Below are positions 9,792-17,363 of a stretch of 26,199 nt of DNA, piece by piece. Under the pieces are notes generated by a model, which saw only the letters and a program-made list of their open reading frames with translations, ran no database searches and was not told where the DNA came from. Made by a program: the position numbers and the translations under genes. The stretch lies in the NCBI GenBank assembly GCA_964426425.1, contig CAYRQI010000002.1, positions 1 through 26,199 of the forward strand. Direction: 5' to 3'. Source of the DNA: an uncultured Candidatus Saccharibacteria bacterium (GTDB lineage: Bacteria; Patescibacteriota; Minisyncoccia; Phycocordibacterales; UBA2100). Numbering within the stretch: position 1 is the stretch's first letter; every line of letters starts with the position of its first letter.

Positions 9792-10447
9792 TCCTCGATA
9801 AATTTAAGAAGATCGTTGAAGGATCGCGCGACGGCATCCGCATTTGCGACTACTTTGTCGCGATAGACATGCTCGGTGTAGGCAACGAACGTGTCTGCAG
9901 CGCCTTGCTTCTTGATCTCATAGTCGGTCCAGCCGTCGCCGATTATGACGCGCGGAGATGGGAGGGAGGCGCTTGTGATGGCGACGATCTTTCCACCTTC
10001 TTGCGCCGTGGGACGCTTCGCGATTCCTGTTGCAATACCTCTCTCGTACACAAATGCATTGGCAAATGTGTGAGCAGGGTCCAGCCCGAGTGTCTCGGCT
10101 ACCGGCGCGATGATTTCCTCGAATCCGCCGGAAATAATATGGATGCGCTCCCGGTTCGTCTGCAGGTATGCGCGATGCGCGAGAAATGACGGTGTGATGT
10201 GATGAATCATTTCGCGAGCGATTCGCGCGACACTCTCGCGCGAAGGAGAGATAAGCGCCATGCGGCGCGCAAGCGATTCTCCAAAAGGTATGGCGCCCTC
10301 CATACCGAGCTCCGTGATGCGCTTCACTTTGGCAACAATCTCTTCGCGATCAGATCTTCCGGCAAGAGCGACCTCGGATAGGAGATCGAGAGTTTCGCAA
10401 TCCACCATCGTGCTGTCGAAGTCGAATATGACGGAAGCAAATTTCAT
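9788..10447 (-). CDS. serB: HAD-IB family phosphatase, probable phosphoserine phosphatase
   Basis: FDFDST motif I, ITELGMEG.IPF.ESL..R cap, ISGGF, IGDGWTD. Convergent with serA (4-nt overlap). Confidence 0.8.
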   Translation of the reverse strand: MKFASVIFDFDSTMVDCETLDLLSEVALAGRSDREEIVAKVKRITELGMEGAIPFGESLARRMALISPSRESVARIAREMIHHITPSFLAHRAYLQTNRERIHIISGGFEEIIAPVAETLGLDPAHTFANAFVYERGIATGIAKRPTAQEGGKIVAITSASLPSPRVIIGDGWTDYEIKKQGAADTFVAYTEHVYRDKVVANADAVARSFNDLLKFIED

Positions 10448-10561
10448 ACGGTGGCAGTTCCTAACTTAAATGCTGTCTACCTTATACCTTTTCGGCAGAG
10501 TCGCCTGCCAGCACGGCCCAATTGTACCCTATTCCCGACCGCGCATTTCTATTCCCATACC

Positions 10562-10599
10562 TTACTACTTTCTTGAACCATGGTATGAAAGAGTAGTAA
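10562..10599. repeat. 38-bp imperfect palindrome abutting the stop codon of the PaaX/Cas2-like gene
   Basis: TTACTACTTTCTTGAACCA|TGGTATGAAAGAGTAGTAA; 14/19 arm positions are complementary. Shares TACTCTTTCrTACCATGGT (18/19) with 11213-11250. Confidence 0.8.
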
Positions 10600-11232
10600 T
10601 TAGCGCACCCCGAAATGTTTCTTGAATGCGGCATCATTGCCGATTGACTTTGCTACAACCATTCGAAGTTCCTTCTCCGTTAAATCAAACAAAGATTTCA
10701 AAAGATCAATTTGACTAGAGCAGTCGAACGGATATAGCCAAACACTTTTTTGCACCATGACAGCGCCAAGTCGACTCACAAGCGCACGAAACGCATTGCG
10801 CTTTGAACGCTCCTCTGCAGAAATATCAAACATTATGATGCGCCAGCATTTGTCCCACACTGGAGGAGTTTCCACAGGCTTTAAGAGAGCGCGTTTGATT
10901 CGCAACTGAGTGCCATGCTGCTTGCCCCTTTCTGTAAGTTCTATGCGTATGCCTCTTCCGTCTTTTCTAGTTCTAGTCGTTACGCGGACATATTTTTTCC
11001 GTTTGAGGTATTGAAATGAGTTGTTTAGTCTCTTTCGACGAATGTTGTCGTTGTCCTTCAAAGCATACCCAATTCCTGCAAGAACAGCAAAAAGTGTCGG
11101 AGCGAAAGTGAGCCCTCCCACTATGCCGCCTCCTATCAGTAGCGCCTCGAGCAAACCGCGCGGCGTGTCGTCGAACAGATAATCACGTTTGCCCTTCTTT
11201 GGCGATTGTACGATGTTACTCTTTCGTACCAT
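10600..11232 (-). CDS. PaaX-like protein: N-terminal hydrophobic segment, winged helix, Cas2-like (PaaX central) domain
   Basis: FQYLKRKKYV...IELTERGK wHTH-like segment and WDKCWRIIMFDI...R..FR..V..LG..MVQKSVWLYP domain. Start taken at 11232 (TGTTACACT 8 nt upstream). Confidence 0.85.
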   Translation of the reverse strand: MVRKSNIVQSPKKGKRDYLFDDTPRGLLEALLIGGGIVGGLTFAPTLFAVLAGIGYALKDNDNIRRKRLNNSFQYLKRKKYVRVTTRTRKDGRGIRIELTERGKQHGTQLRIKRALLKPVETPPVWDKCWRIIMFDISAEERSKRNAFRALVSRLGAVMVQKSVWLYPFDCSSQIDLLKSLFDLTEKELRMVVAKSIGNDAAFKKHFGVR

Positions 11233-11250
11233 GGTATAGAAGTGTAACAT
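11213..11250. repeat. 38-bp imperfect palindrome centred on the start codon of the PaaX/Cas2-like gene
   Basis: ATGTTACTCTTTCGTACCA|TGGTATAGAAGTGTAACAT; 15/19 arm positions are complementary. It covers the -10 box and the ATG. Confidence 0.85.
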
Positions 11251-11274
11251 GAGGTATGCTCCGCGGTATCTTCG

Positions 11275-13704
11275 CTAGCGGCGATGCATCTCTTTCTCCA
11301 CCTTTGCGACCATGACCTTCGTCTTGATGATGGAATCGGGATTCAGCGACATACTCTCGATTCCCTGCTCTACCAAAAATTTGGCGAATCCCGGATGGTC
11401 AGAAGGCGCCTGCCCGCAGATACCGACATACTTTTTTCGCTTGCGACACACGCGTATCACCTCGGCAATGAATTTCTTGACAGCCGGGTCGTTCTCATCG
11501 GCGATGCGGTTCACGAGCCCGGAGTCGCGGTCGAGGCCGAGCGTAAGCTGTGTCAAGTCGTTCGAGCCGATTGACATGCCGTCGAAGATATCCAAAAACT
11601 CGTCGGCAAGGATGACGTTACTGGGTATCTCGCACATGACAATGACGGGAGTCTTCTGCCCGGAGCGCGGCTCACCAGGTAGCGACTGCGGATGCAGGCC
11701 CGCTTCGGCCATCGTCGCGAGCACCTTTCTACCCTCTTCGAGGGTGCGACAAAAAGGAACCATGGGGATCGCATTCGTTAAGCCCATGTCTTCTCGCACG
11801 AGATGCAAGGCCTTGCACTCGAGCTCAAAGGCCTCTTTGAACTTGGGATCGTAGTAGCGTGAAGCGCCGCGCCAGCCGAGCATCGGATTTTCCTCATGGG
11901 GTTCGAAGTAATCACCGCCGAGGAGCGATCGGTATTCGTTTGATTTGAAATCGGAAAAACGAACGATGACCTGCTTCGGGTAAAACGCGGTCGCGATCTT
12001 TGCGATGCCGAAGGCGAGATTGTCGACATAGTAGCGCTTCCGATCGCTCCAGCCGCGTACCTTCTTGTCTATCTTTTCTCGCAGAGCGAGCGGGAGTTTC
12101 TTGTAGTGAATGAGCGCGAGCGGGTGCACGCCGACAGAGGAGGCGATGATAAACTCTTCGCGCGCGAGCCCGACACCTTCGTGCGGCAGGAACGATTTCT
12201 CGAACGCTGTATCCGGCGTGGCAAGATTCATCGATATCTTTGTTTTCGTCGCGGGAATCTTCCGCACATCACTCTCCCGCACGTCGAATCGGAGCGCCCC
12301 TTGAAATATGACGCCTTCAGAGGTCGTCGTATCAACCGTGATGACTTGCCCCGTTTTTATCTGTTTTGTCACAGTCTCCGCGCCGACGACCGCGGTCAAG
12401 CCCAACTCTCGCGAAACGATTGCTGCGTGCGAAGTGCGGCCACCCTTGTCGGTCACGATGGCAGCGGCTTTCTTCATCACCGGCTCCCAATCCGGGTCCG
12501 TCATCTCGGTCACCAGAATCTCTCCCGACTGCAATTCTTCCATGTCCTTCACGCTCTCGATGATTCGCGCTTTCCCCACGACGATCTTCGAGCCGACCGA
12601 GAGCCCTTTTGCGAGAATCGTGCCCGGATCGCGGCGCATATACTCCTTTATCTTCGAGCGATCTTTCGAAACCTGCACCGTCTCGGGCCGCGCCTGCAGA
12701 ATGAAGAGCTCGTTGGTCTTCCCGTCGAGGCCCCATTCGATATCCATGGGACTCGGCCTTCCGCGTTTTTTCGAATAGTGCTCTTCGATGGTCTTCGCCC
12801 AGCGCGCGAGGACCATAATCTCGCGACTCGAAAGCGAGAAGCGCCGCCTGTCGGCCTCACTCGTCATAACGACCCGTACGGGCTTCGCGCTCCCGCGTGG
12901 AGCATACACGAGCTTCTCTGCCTTTCCGCCCACACGTTTCCCGATAATGGGAAGGGGCGCTTTGTCTATCATTTTTTTTGCGACGAGAAATTCATCTGGC
13001 ACCACTCTCCCCTGCACGACCATCTCGCCGAGTCCGTAGGAGGACGTAATCAAAATGACGTCGGGAAAACCGCTCTCGGTGTCAAGCGTGAAAATCACAC
13101 CGGAAGCGCCGAGATCGCTCCTGACCATCCGCTGCACGCCCACCGAAAGCGCGATCTCATGCTTGTCGTAACCCTTATCGACGCGATAACTGATGGCACG
13201 ACCCGTAAAGAGCGAGGCGAAGCACGCGCGGATCGCTTTCAACACCTCTCTTTCGCCGCGAACGCCGAGGTAGGTGTCGTGCTCGCCGGCAAAACTGGCG
13301 TCCGGCAGATCTTCGGCCGTCGCCGAGGAGCGCACAGCGACATCAATGTTCGTGCCATACTTCTCTTCCATCTCGCGATAGGCGCGGATGATGCGTTCTT
13401 CAAGCGCACGCGGAAGTGGCGAGGCGACTATTTTCTTTCGTATCGCTGCACCGACTTTTTCAAAGTGCTTCACGTCGCCCTTTCTCAATTTCCGAAGTTC
13501 GTCTTTGATACATTGCTCAAGACCTGCTTCACGCAAAAACAGCCGATAGGCCTCGGCTGTCACGATGAATCCCGAGGGCACGCGGATCCCCCTCTTCCCG
13601 AGTTCCCGGAGCATCTCACCAAGAGAAGCGTTCTTGCCGCCGACGAGCGCGACATCGTTCATCCCAGCTTTTTCCATCGGGATCACGAGTCGTCCCGCCT
13701 TCAT
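11275..13704 (-). CDS. ppsA: Phosphoenolpyruvate synthase (pyruvate, water dikinase)
   Basis: VGGKNASLGEM, VAVRSSATAEDLPDASFAG, DIEW, ILQARPETV, GGRTSHAAIVSRELG phospho-His motif, GVGLAR, EENPMLGWRGASRY, SIGSNDLTQL and GICGQAPSD. Start 13704 (TATACT 6 nt upstream). Confidence 0.97.
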   Translation of the reverse strand: MKAGRLVIPMEKAGMNDVALVGGKNASLGEMLRELGKRGIRVPSGFIVTAEAYRLFLREAGLEQCIKDELRKLRKGDVKHFEKVGAAIRKKIVASPLPRALEERIIRAYREMEEKYGTNIDVAVRSSATAEDLPDASFAGEHDTYLGVRGEREVLKAIRACFASLFTGRAISYRVDKGYDKHEIALSVGVQRMVRSDLGASGVIFTLDTESGFPDVILITSSYGLGEMVVQGRVVPDEFLVAKKMIDKAPLPIIGKRVGGKAEKLVYAPRGSAKPVRVVMTSEADRRRFSLSSREIMVLARWAKTIEEHYSKKRGRPSPMDIEWGLDGKTNELFILQARPETVQVSKDRSKIKEYMRRDPGTILAKGLSVGSKIVVGKARIIESVKDMEELQSGEILVTEMTDPDWEPVMKKAAAIVTDKGGRTSHAAIVSRELGLTAVVGAETVTKQIKTGQVITVDTTTSEGVIFQGALRFDVRESDVRKIPATKTKISMNLATPDTAFEKSFLPHEGVGLAREEFIIASSVGVHPLALIHYKKLPLALREKIDKKVRGWSDRKRYYVDNLAFGIAKIATAFYPKQVIVRFSDFKSNEYRSLLGGDYFEPHEENPMLGWRGASRYYDPKFKEAFELECKALHLVREDMGLTNAIPMVPFCRTLEEGRKVLATMAEAGLHPQSLPGEPRSGQKTPVIVMCEIPSNVILADEFLDIFDGMSIGSNDLTQLTLGLDRDSGLVNRIADENDPAVKKFIAEVIRVCRKRKKYVGICGQAPSDHPGFAKFLVEQGIESMSLNPDSIIKTKVMVAKVEKEMHRR

Positions 13705-16654: not shown

Positions 16655-16682
16655 AGTCAAAAACATGTTATCCTATACTTAC

Positions 16683-17363
16683 ATGGTGACCAGAGAACCG
16701 TGCGTGACCGACGAGTGGTACCACTGCTACAATAGAGGCGTCGACAAACGAATCGTCTTCGAGAGGCCGGCACACTATGAGCGCTTCATATCTCTCCTCT
16801 ACGCAAGTAACGGCACCAAGTCAGAAGTCATCTCCGAAAGATTCACCACCGACCTGACATCGCTCCTCAATGACAGATCGATAGACAGAGGCGATCCTCT
16901 GGTCGACATCGGCGCCTATTGCCTTATGCCGACCCATGTGCACCTCATTCTCAAGCAGCTTCAAGACGGTGGCATCGCTCGCTTTATGCAAAAAGTCTTC
17001 ACGGGATACACGATGTACTTCAACGTGCGAAATGAACGCGCGGGCGCCCTGTTCGCGGGAACGTATAAAGCAAAGCACATCGATGATGATAACTATTTGA
17101 AGCTGGCAGTACCATACGTCCTCCTCAACCCGCTTGAATTGTTCGATTCAACGTGGAAGAAAGGGGGAGGAAATTTGAGAGTTCTGGAGAACAAGCTATT
17201 GGCATATCCGTACTCAAGTGTGCGAGCATTTTTACGGCACGATTGTCCGGAAAGAAAAATCACAGGCAACTCACTGTATGACTACTATGACCGTGTGCCG
17301 GATCTGGCGACGATGATGCGCGAAGCGAAAGAATACTACCGAAGCATTCATCCGGAGGTTTAA
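16683..17363 (+). mobile_element. rayT: REP-associated tyrosine transposase (Y1/HUH, TnpA-REP/RAYT type)
   Basis: WYHCYNRG, AYCLMPTHVHL (HUH), FMQK...YTMYFN..R.G.LF.G.YK, YVLLNP (catalytic Tyr region) and YPYSS. Flanked by identical-family palindromes. Confidence 0.9.

Follow-up and report, generated by a model that had tools for sequence, protein, structure and literature searches.

A winged-helix/Cas2-fold gene bracketed by two related palindromes in Candidatus Saccharibacteria, and its relatives in the Candidate Phyla Radiation

Two 38-bp palindromes at the ends of one gene

The window, by which we mean the whole stretch of 26,199 nucleotides analysed here (contig CAYRQI010000002.1 of an uncultured Candidatus Saccharibacteria bacterium), carries on its minus strand a gene for a protein with a winged helix-turn-helix (wHTH) and a Cas2-fold domain, referred to below as mini-PaaX. 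A ppsA-like gene lies upstream of it and a serB-like gene downstream. An earlier note on this DNA had described a 38-bp palindrome at each end of the gene, one centred on the start codon and the other beginning with the base after the stop codon, and this arrangement was confirmed base for base. The features are as follows (a slash marks the centre of a dyad):

10562..10599, no strand: 3' palindrome (site A), 38 bp, dyad CCA/TGG, 14/19 arm positions paired
10600..11232, minus strand: CDS of the 210-aa wHTH and Cas2-fold protein mini-PaaX, ATG 11232-11230, TAA 10602-10600
11213..11250, no strand: 5' palindrome (site B), 38 bp, centre CCA/TGG, 15/19 arm positions paired
11241..11249, minus strand: candidate extended -10-like box TGTTACACT (TGnTAnnnT), read from the sequence, 8 nt 5' of the ATG and within the outer arm of site B

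The first base of site A is the base directly 3' of the stop codon, and the dyad of site B falls between 11231 and 11232, that is, inside the ATG. This start codon was picked by homology with the paralogues C16 and C59, both of which begin with MV.K from the same central ATG and have no in-frame start upstream. The 19-mer that the earlier note had seen in opposite orientation in the two palindromes is indeed present: TACTCTTTCRTACCATGGT was found at 11217-11235 on the plus strand and at 10577-10595 on the minus strand, with 0 mismatches to the degenerate word, and the two copies are identical to each other at 18/19 positions. Within the window the word occurs at the two flanking sites only, which are spaced by about 650 bp, and at least three matches were obtained in 0/100 shuffles.

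The 5' palindrome was also said to cover the -10 box, which agrees with the position of TGTTACACT in its arm; in paralogue C59, TATAAT stands at the same spacing. Since the candidate box lies only 8 nt before the ATG, the transcript would be leaderless or nearly so. Site A has a -10-like TACTCT box 8 nt before its own central ATG, directed towards serB. A consensus sigma-70 promoter scan of positions 10350-11400 returned no promoter-like site, and an intrinsic-terminator scan of the same interval returned just two terminator-like sites, at chance level and inside the ORF. The AT-richness suspected for the segment was borne out: the GC content of the gene is 0.464 versus a mean of 0.544 for the genes of the genome, which places it at the 2.4th percentile of 631 genes, and several paralogues have a low GC content as well.

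Domains, predicted fold and predicted dimer of mini-PaaX

As judged from profile matches and a predicted structure, the protein is a shortened PaaX: a MarR/PadR-like winged helix joined to a Cas2-fold domain, without the C-terminal domain of PaaX. Residues 131-203 matched Pfam PaaX_M (PF20803) with an E value of 2.3e-15 and 56.9 bits (cut-off, 24), and two Cas2 profiles were matched at or above their curated cut-offs (TIGR01573, 26.1 versus 24.5; PF09827, 23.8 versus 23.8). The Pfam search of mini-PaaX gave no match at E<=1 to the N-terminal winged helix of PaaX (PF07848) and no match to its C-terminal helical domain (PF08223), and the protein stops 3 residues past the Cas2-fold domain. Nor did mini-PaaX match the Y1 transposase profile (PF01797). 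Sequence matches of the winged helix were weak and of the MarR/SarA type, and those in the PDB covered the recognition helix and wing of MarR/SlyA proteins. The AF2 model has a pLDDT of 84; its top Foldseek match, which was also the best full-length match, was PaaX 8a39 (197 columns including the wHTH; TM, 0.41; E, 2e-4), and further matches were to PadR-type proteins and Cas2 structures. The parts of the protein are as follows:

10936..11163, minus strand: winged-helix region, residues about 24-99, with H1, H2, recognition helix 63-78 and wing 82-99 (AF2 secondary structure)
11053..11148, minus strand: uncharged, hydrophobic, Gly-rich stretch, residues 29-60, spanning H1-H2 of the winged helix
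10612..10857, minus strand: Cas2-fold domain, residues 126-207, with the predicted dimer interface

The proposal of the earlier note that a winged helix is combined with a Cas2-like domain that retains the acidic residue of the FDI motif is thus in line with the profile matches and with conservation in the family. D136 of this motif, which corresponds to the metal-binding Asp of Cas2, and D127 are invariant in 61/61 aligned sequences, and W126, W130, F135, Q161 and S163 of the Cas2 domain are invariant too. A homodimer model reached an ipSAE of 0.51 versus 0.00 for the best control; in the calibration of the tool, this mark was reached by 20/30 solved homodimers and 1/23 monomers. Three runs agreed in at least 96% of the contacts, with a pLDDT of at least 70, and placed the predicted interface at residues 129-136, 160-164 and 186-199. 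The invariant Asp lies in this predicted interface and may have a structural role. Residues 29-60 have a 19-residue Kyte-Doolittle mean of 1.85, a value of at least 1.6 is found in 49/61 family members, and the AF2 confidence for the stretch is low (57-69). It may be a membrane-inserted segment, and the DNA-binding domain may be atypical or membrane embedded.

PaaX is a repressor that binds palindromic operators. In PaaX as in mini-PaaX, an N-terminal winged helix is followed by a Cas2-like ferredoxin-fold domain. PaaX responds to phenylacetyl-CoA and represses paa operons (E. coli W structure 8A39; PF07848, PF20803 and PF08223), and PaaX-like structures are 3L09 and that of Rv0674, 3KFW. In contrast to PaaX, mini-PaaX has only about 210 residues and lacks the C-terminal helical domain and a PF07848 match, its gene adjoins ppsA and serB rather than paa genes, and this gene is framed by a pair of long 38-bp sites of its own. 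Moreover, the mini-PaaX family is present in multiple copies per genome with apparently divergent specificities, to judge from the sites, and most members have the hydrophobic N-terminal stretch. With autorepressors of the MarR/PadR type the protein shares a recognition helix and a wing as well as a palindrome over its own -10 box and gene start, but its dimer is predicted to form via the Cas2 fold and not via helices of the wHTH domain, its site is 38 bp long, a second site follows the stop codon, and copies are found at other gene ends. Mini-PaaX resembles Cas2 in its ferredoxin-like fold, in the FDI Asp where strand 1 ends and in its predicted homodimer, which forms via the Cas2-fold domain and has the Asp in its interface. 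Unlike Cas2 of CRISPR systems, mini-PaaX has a fused winged helix, and its repeats lie about 650 bp from each other on either side of a gene instead of separating spacers. As the earlier note had stated, there is no sign of a cas operon or CRISPR array: Cas1 (PF01867) was not found in the 92%-complete genome, in which control profiles matched, and the window holds two repeat copies and no array.

Cognate pairs, solo sites and lineage-specific presence

The 837-kb genome of this ultra-small, Kaiserbacteria-like CPR bacterium encodes roughly 8 paralogues that are only 23-53% identical to each other in pairwise comparison, and all of them have their own cognate palindrome pair, with one site 0-25 nt past the stop and the other over or just before the start. 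In a set of 72 homologous loci from at least 10 CPR (Candidate Phyla Radiation) lineages (Kaiser-, Pacei-, Sacchari-, Wildermuth-, Nealson-, Taylor-, Moran-, Berkel-, Yanofsky- and Uhrbacteria), a strong palindrome (>=13/16) was present upstream in 32/72 and downstream in 32/72, compared to 1/72 and 0/72 in control windows inside genes; only about 45% of the loci per side pass this strict threshold. In 28/30 loci, the upstream site agreed with the downstream one at 12/14 positions or more, versus 4.2% for shuffled pairings. Site similarity increased with protein similarity (Mantel r about 0.38; p<=0.0005), a correlation that is confounded by shared descent. The expectation that homologues have cognate palindrome pairs that change with the protein was thus met both by the paralogues of this genome and by the loci across the CPR. 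The predicted map of proteins to site families, read from the sequences, is C2 with the TTACTC type, C59/C3 with the TGATGTAC type, C43 with the TATATCA type and C5 with the GCGGCCGC type. When representatives of 50%-identity clusters were searched with a profile of the family, 5,450 matched at E<=1e-3 and 2,783 at E<=1e-10, and the family is spread over most CPR lineages sampled.

Each site is a near-symmetric palindrome, and the orientation of the pairs was read from the informative asymmetric positions, which were direct in 11 cases, inverted in 5 and tied in 12 (p=0.21). In our genome, the pairs likewise had no preference for direct or inverted orientation. These counts give no support to a target-site or CRISPR-repeat-like duplication, which predicts direct repeats, or to a TIR/RAYT layout, which predicts inverted ones.

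In addition to the pairs, the genome contains 19 solo copies, 13 of the CCA/TGG superfamily and 6 of the GCGG/CCGC family. Their sub-types correspond to particular paralogues, with 0-6 solos per sub-type, and for the pairs of C8, C19 and C11/C13 solos are absent from the genome. The solos occupy gaps of 3-25 nt at the 3' ends of genes, and several are perfect palindromes with 19-bp arms; nearly all sites are at gene 3' ends, about 11 flanked by convergent and about 9 by tandem genes. The genes next to 10 solos are functionally unrelated housekeeping genes, and an ordinary regulon is therefore disfavoured as an explanation of the solos. For the solos after aldolase, parB and recR, all 12 of the 12 orthologous positions recovered from the 4-5 closest genomes were empty. 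The convergent stops of parB and relA, for instance, are 0-15 nt apart in the relatives versus 49 nt here, where the 38-bp palindrome lies between them; for a solo site, the comparison of empty with filled positions thus worked. Long palindromes as such are not exclusive to the family, since G053, a complete genome of the same genus in which two profiles detected 0 family members, has 2.75 of them per 100 kb, and palindrome families with no partner gene also occur in our genome. The densities of 3.46 per 100 kb in our genome and 4.06 in G013 (8 family copies) indicate, together with that of G053, that the palindrome load is not strictly tied to the family.

In RAYT genes the flanking REPs are inverted, REP doublets form REPINs, and the RAYT protein is a HUH/Y1 transposase of the IS200/IS605 type. 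The parallel drawn in the earlier note between the bracketed gene and rayT with its REPs turned out to be apt because solo copies do exist at other gene ends, in lineage-specific positions. As in REP/RAYT systems, a palindromic repeat is found on both flanks of the gene, single repeats are scattered among narrow intergenic spaces, most of them at 3' ends or between convergent genes, and several repeat families exist per genome, each with its own paralogue. In contrast to these systems, mini-PaaX is unrelated to HUH/Y1 transposases, solos are few and no fixed inversion was apparent among the flanking copies. Six Y1_Tnp homologues are encoded elsewhere in the genome, without these palindromes at their flanks, and are thus not obvious drivers of the spread.

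The family is present in 18/25 genomes of the genus, with 0-8 copies each. An orthologous module (L017; protein 72% identical) has kept ppsA upstream and both palindromes, with the 3' palindrome in the equivalent place, but its downstream gene is different, convergent and unrelated. Next to the ppsA orthologues of 12 same-genus genomes the module is absent and the downstream genes differ, and the serB orthologues of four same-genus genomes have a different upstream gene and no such site, which speaks against the control of downstream serB considered in the earlier note. The note had also thought of a mobile module; no evidence for a recent transposition of the gene was obtained, nor any for cleavage of its ends by the protein, and the low identity of the paralogues marks them as old. 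A search for empty sites of the gene module yielded no exact one among the same-genus ppsA and serB orthologue loci, because synteny breaks on one side. The only sequencing data in which this DNA was found are contigs of the probable source sample, and these had no joints or variants indicative of population polymorphism.

A proposed self-recognizing unit and its alternatives

The reading that we favour, and consider probable though well short of certain, is that mini-PaaX is a dimeric, site-specific DNA-binding protein that represses its own gene, that the gene and its sites are gained and lost as one unit, and that the sites disperse like REPs. The Cas2-fold domains would pair two chains, and the two winged helices would each read one half of the 38-bp palindrome as double-stranded DNA. 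The mismatches in the sites are in line with this: G:T and A:C types occur about equally often (38 versus 39) and thus reveal no wobble bias of the sense strand, which favours double-stranded DNA over RNA as the form recognized. As site B covers the promoter, with the candidate -10 box in one arm and the start codon at its centre, the protein is expected to repress the leaderless transcription of its own gene. Site A might act as an insulator or roadblock, as a partner in DNA looping or as the boundary of the module. The gene with its two sites behaves as a unit that has diversified to about 8 paralogues, each with its cognate pair, that is present or absent as a whole among close relatives and that recurs across Patescibacteria. 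In addition, sites have spread singly, in a REP-like manner, to the narrow gaps that separate unrelated genes. The selfish-module and autoregulator models of the earlier note do not exclude each other, and the sequence is compatible with either.

Some observations do not fit a plain autorepressor and count against the favoured reading. The 3' site and the solos between convergent genes would be left unexplained, and the invariant Asp and other Cas2-domain residues would be superfluous for such a protein, though they lie in the predicted interface. The hydrophobic, weakly modelled stretch in the winged helix of most members, the share of about 45% of loci per side with a strong palindrome and the long palindromes of G053 weigh against the reading as well.

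Alternatively, mini-PaaX could be the counterpart of a RAYT in a REPtron, selfish or domesticated, whose Cas2-fold nuclease nicks or cuts the palindromes, possibly as extruded cruciforms or hairpins, and so copies the sites and occasionally the gene. This we regard as rather unlikely, although several observations speak for it: the gene has palindromes of its own on both sides and is matched by dispersed solos of the same sub-type, the solos between convergent stops are absent in relatives, the family occurs patchily and in several copies in a single genus, several paralogues are low in GC, D136 and D127 are invariant in the 61 sequences, and the conventional Y1 homologues lack flanking palindromes. 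On the other hand, the paralogues are old, the pairs of C8, C19 and C11/C13 have no solo at all, the flanking sites show no consistent inversion at their informative positions, the conserved Asp may be structural, and PaaX, the nearest structural relative, is a repressor according to its PDB entry and Pfam naming. The bolder version, in which the CPR has a second, independent REP/RAYT lifestyle with a wHTH-guided Cas2-fold enzyme that recognizes its own 38-bp palindromes and, by cutting or nicking, propagates them together with the gene, appears doubtful to us. We know of no transposition chemistry for the Cas2 fold alone. In a further variant, suggested by the sequence, the hydrophobic N terminus might anchor the dimer in the membrane, and the dispersed sites would then tether the chromosome.

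Cas2 and VapD family members have been reported to have RNase activity, and mini-PaaX has a Cas2-fold domain, so the palindromes could instead be transcribed and serve as hairpins at gene ends, as terminators, stabilizers or processing sites, which the protein would bind or cleave as RNA. The location of nearly all sites at gene 3' ends and the perfect solos with 19-bp arms, which would give very stable hairpins, fit this view, but it is improbable in our judgement. As sense RNA, sites A and B fold only weakly (-8 kcal/mol; z, -0.8 and 0.0) and no better than shuffled sequences, the equal mismatch counts argue against RNA, and the dyad (CCATGG, GCGGCCGC) is conserved and self-complementary, which is needless for a hairpin loop. 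Also, the 5' site covers the gene's promoter and start codon, and a recognition helix with a wing is typical of readers of double-stranded DNA. Even less credit is given to a regulator with two operators, in which the 3' site controls serB or loops to the 5' site and the solos form an ordinary regulon. PaaX-type proteins are repressors, the two sites are about 650 bp apart and the TACTCT box of the 3' site does face serB, but in relatives serB is preceded by other genes and by no such site, and the L017 ortholog keeps its 3' site beside an unrelated convergent gene. Furthermore, most solos separate the 3' ends of convergent genes, a position that offers no promoter to control, their neighbours have no common function and their positions are not conserved in close relatives. 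We strongly disfavour the view that the palindromes have no specific link to the protein and are just hairpins or terminators common in intergenic regions of the lineage. The similar density of long palindromes in G053 and the palindrome families that have no partner gene would be expected from such a coincidence, but the match of the sites of the same gene, their enrichment at the flanks over the controls and the bracketing of all 8 paralogues would not.

The earlier note knew of no description of such paired sites, and indeed no published account of palindrome-bracketed PaaX/Cas2-like genes in CPR was found in the full-text literature, in a search whose coverage mostly left out subscription journals. 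The genes described here are members of a large, CPR-wide family without a described function, in which the probable DNA target of each protein is written beside its gene, twice. The family therefore offers hundreds of natural protein/site pairs from which a recognition code for winged-helix/Cas2-fold proteins could be read, and it could be a source of orthogonal repressor-operator pairs. The sites behave like REPs, yet their partner protein is unrelated to RAYT. If the Cas2-fold domain is active on the palindromes, this would be relevant to how components of CRISPR adaptation arose, and if the REP/RAYT-like reading is true, the Cas2 fold would have a stand-alone, sequence-specific, DNA-mobilizing role outside CRISPR and might show how Cas2-like proteins dealt with repeats before or beside CRISPR adaptation. 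For the organisms themselves, whose genomes are tiny, the module may represent a novel type of self-contained genetic unit that is gained and lost.

A gene between two palindromes

The genome studied, of which the window is contig C2, comprises 837 kb in 73 contigs, is 92% complete and has a GC content of 54%; among named relatives, a Candidatus Kaiserbacteria MAG is the closest. The ORF encoding the winged helix and Cas2 fold (10600-11250, minus strand) has two ATGs in frame, one of which, 11232-11230, falls exactly on the dyad of the 5' palindrome (site B, 11213-11250). Because the paralogues on contigs C16 and C59, which lack any start farther upstream, open with MV.K at the equivalent central ATG, this ATG is, by sequence comparison, the homologous start of the gene. 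The arms pair at 15 of 19 positions in site B and at 14 of 19 in the 3' palindrome (site A, 10562-10599). The two share the word that the earlier note had seen in them, with 18/19 identity over the 19-mer, and none of 100 shuffles equalled the number of matches to this word. Its impression of AT-richness also held, the GC content of the gene (0.464) being at the 2.4th percentile among 631 genes; paralogues C16, C43 and C19 are likewise low in GC, and C59 and C5 are not.

Features of the gene
10600-10602, minus strand: stop codon, directly abutting the palindrome at 10562-10599
8 nt 5' of the ATG, coding strand: -10-like box TGTTACACT (TGnTAnnnT), within the outer arm of site B
11053-11148, minus strand: hydrophobic stretch (residues 29-60) replacing the usual amphipathic H1-H2; low-confidence model

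Since the box sits inside the outer arm, a protein on the palindrome would cover the -10 box together with the point where the transcript begins. This leaderless-type layout, with a -10-like box near the ATG, was checked for the gene and its paralogues only. The 3' palindrome, too, has an ATG at its centre, and a TACTCT box again lies 8 nt ahead of it (10551-10582, minus strand); this ATG opens a frame of just 10 codons (MVQESSKVWE), and ATG and box are probably a by-product of the symmetry of the site.

The encoded protein

The protein matched PaaX_M (Cas2-like) in Pfam with 2.3e-15, the Cas2 family right at its curated Pfam cut-off and TIGR01573 slightly over its cut-off. In a profile search among PDB sequences, only the recognition helix plus wing of MarR/SlyA and Cas2 proteins were matched. 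The AF2 model, made from 61 sequences (pLDDT 84), predicts H1 and H2 at low confidence, a recognition helix (63-78), a wing (82-99), a linker helix (101-117) and a βαββαβ Cas2 fold (130-207). The best full-length Foldseek match was PaaX (8a39), followed by Rv0674 and 3l09, and single domains were matched by Cas2 and PadR proteins. W126, D127, W130, F135, D136, Q161 and S163 are invariant in all 61 sequences. In 49 of the 61 aligned members, H1-H2 is an uncharged, Gly-rich hydrophobic stretch (Kyte-Doolittle 19-residue mean of at least 1.6), which at residues 29-60 may be a membrane hairpin.

A predicted homodimer cleared its controls (0.51 versus 0.00). In calibration, 20 of 30 solved homodimers came up to this mark, as did 1 of 23 monomers. 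Three runs agreed in at least 96% of contacts, with a pLDDT of at least 70. The predicted interface is the sheet of the Cas2 fold, including D136. This model is a likeness and not proof, because Cas2 and PaaX dimers have already been solved.

Paralogues, homologues and dispersed palindromes

The family has about 10 matches in this genome, corresponding to about 8 genes, since C59 plus C3 and C11 plus C13 each appear to be one gene divided by the assembly. Every paralogue is bracketed by a cognate palindrome pair, as had been claimed for the gene in the window. The 3' sites begin 0 to 25 nt past the stop, and the 5' sites overlap the start or finish a few bases ahead of it.

Palindrome pairs of the paralogues
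C2, C16, C43, C59/C3: centred on CCA|TGG
C5: ..CATGCGG|CCGCATG..
C19: GTGGTTA...CCT|AGG
C8: ..GTCTCG|..CGAGAC..
C11/C13: TTCAC|CTGAA

The perfect palindromes C67:2532-2569 and C15:17-54 are identical, one at a contig end and the other at a contig start, and there is an overlap between C13:8156-8323 and the beginning of C11. Since the assembly is interrupted at palindrome repeats, copy counts are lower bounds. Several contigs contain runs of N, one of them within the C8 paralogue.

Of 61 genomes in the same family-level group, 27 carry the family; within the genus, 18 of 25 do (0 to 8 copies each). Further members occur in Saccharibacteria, Paceibacteria, Wildermuth-, Nealson-, Taylor-, Moran-, Berkel-, Yanofsky- and Uhrbacteria. 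When 1.84 billion representatives were searched with a profile, 5,450 matched at E<=1e-3, and the stricter E<=1e-10 left 2,783. Taking the best palindrome per side, we found one of at least 13/16 on the upstream side of 32 of 72 CPR loci and on the downstream side of 32, versus 1 and 0 in equal-sized windows within the genes. Both sites were present in 30 loci, and they shared at least 12/14 in 28 of these, versus 4.2% of shuffled pairings; the check proposed in the earlier note, whether homologues are flanked by their own cognate pair, thus had a positive outcome across CPR. Palindrome sequences vary widely from locus to locus. Site similarity increases with protein similarity (Mantel r ~0.38), which is not proof of co-evolution, because shared descent of whole modules (gene plus both sites) would give the same result.

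An ortholog in MFLZ01000024 (72% identical) likewise lies behind ppsA, with its two palindromes retained, and its downstream gene is a different, convergent one. Twelve same-genus genomes having ppsA (55-87% identical) lack the module. The suggestion that the 3' site controls serB was not supported: in four genomes of the genus, the serB orthologues follow other genes and lack such a site. Since the site is kept in MFLZ01000024 and absent from these orthologues, it travels with the gene and is no serB operator. In another genome of the same genus (locus L060, G075:C4), a perfect 17+6+17 palindrome, AAATACCATAATGGTGCcggtcgGCACCATTATGGTATTT, lies at +31..+70 past the ppsA stop; it is a solo copy, belongs to another sequence family and occupies the gene end that carries the module here.

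Clustering of all near-palindromes of the genome yielded two families tied to paralogues, which also include solo sites, single copies at the ends of unrelated genes. The CCA|TGG superfamily has 21 sites (8 flanking paralogues, 13 solo) and the GCGG|CCGC family 8 (2 flanking C5, 6 solo); solo sub-types correspond to particular paralogues. The best match to the window's sites, C9:12537-12574, is a better palindrome than either, with 17/19 pairing. Solos occupy tight gaps (3 to 25 nt either side), about 11 between convergent genes, about 9 in tandem and 1 or 2 divergent, next to genes without a common theme (L21/RecR, Ddl/glycosylase, AtpB, aldolase/aminotransferase, ParB/RelA, RuvX, SpoU). For three solos, those following aldolase, parB and recR, we looked at the corresponding places in the closest genomes available (flanking proteins 65-87% identical); 12 of 12 orthologous positions had neither such a palindrome nor a module. 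The convergent stops of parB and relA are 0 to 15 nt apart in three relatives versus 49 nt here, with a 38-bp palindrome between. Because the orthologous positions are empty and this gap is wider here, the solos arose by recent, clean insertion and are not operators conserved among relatives. A glycosyltransferase gene (C7:19070-20287, plus strand) is bracketed by palindromes of different families, GCGG|CCGC type at the 5' end (C7:19093-19130) and TGATGTA..CCA|TGG type 5 nt past the stop (C7:20293-20330); a non-family gene can therefore also lie between sites.

The genome has six matches to the Y1 (IS200/IS605/RAYT-type) transposase family, and CCATGG- or GCGGCCGC-type palindromes flank none of the six. 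At one end of some of them lie short hairpins of other kinds.

Y1 matches
C49:4629-5300, C22:179-526, C3:17984-18703, C53:206-991, C14:3864-4469: Y1 matches
16665-17363 of the window, plus strand: weak match, under the cut-off

Not all long palindromes of these genomes are part of the wHTH-Cas2 system. The complete same-genus genome G053, which is free of the family, has long palindromes at comparable density, and repeated families without a wHTH-Cas2 partner gene in the assembly are also present here. A CATCCCGATAC-type palindrome occurs in G053 too.

Partnerless palindrome families
CCCGCCCGTTCTG|CAGAACGGGCGGG: 7 copies
AACATCC.AACATACTT|GAGAATGTTGG: 6 copies
..TAGTGTTTTG|CAAAACACTAGAATAG: 4 copies
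CATCCCGATACTTAAAGTA|..: 2 copies
TATTCCATATTTTGTCCGA|..: 2 copies
Examples: C4:8223-8260, C8:10008-10045, C1:43261-43298, C7:11612-11649, C26:6170-6207, C32:8572-8609, C5:6533-6570, C12:16311-16348, C1:26238-26275

Reading of the sites and the module

Arm mismatches of the G:T type (38) and the A:C type (39) are equal, sites A and B fold weakly as sense RNA and the dyad is conserved and self-complementary; for these reasons, we favor a site of double-stranded DNA that would be read by a symmetric dimer. Judged by their asymmetric positions, the upstream and downstream sites were in direct orientation in 11 loci and in inverted orientation in 5, with 12 loci uninformative, a distribution that supports neither a strict terminal inverted repeat or RAYT layout nor a strict target-site or CRISPR-repeat-type duplication.

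By analogy, the core of the protein would work like PaaX and MarR-type repressors. It differs from PaaX in having no paa context and no PaaX_C domain, and for want of this C-terminal domain it is a "mini-PaaX." The genomic behavior of the module is similar to that of REP/RAYT, but RAYT is a Y1 transposase and the module protein is not. Unlike Cas2, the module is accompanied by neither cas1 nor a CRISPR array, and no Cas1 was found in this 92%-complete genome. A full-text search of the literature found no description of the module. There is a real chance that it encodes an active Cas2-fold enzyme, putatively DNA mobilizing; we rate the module as combining a repressor-operator pair with dispersed, REP-like repeats.
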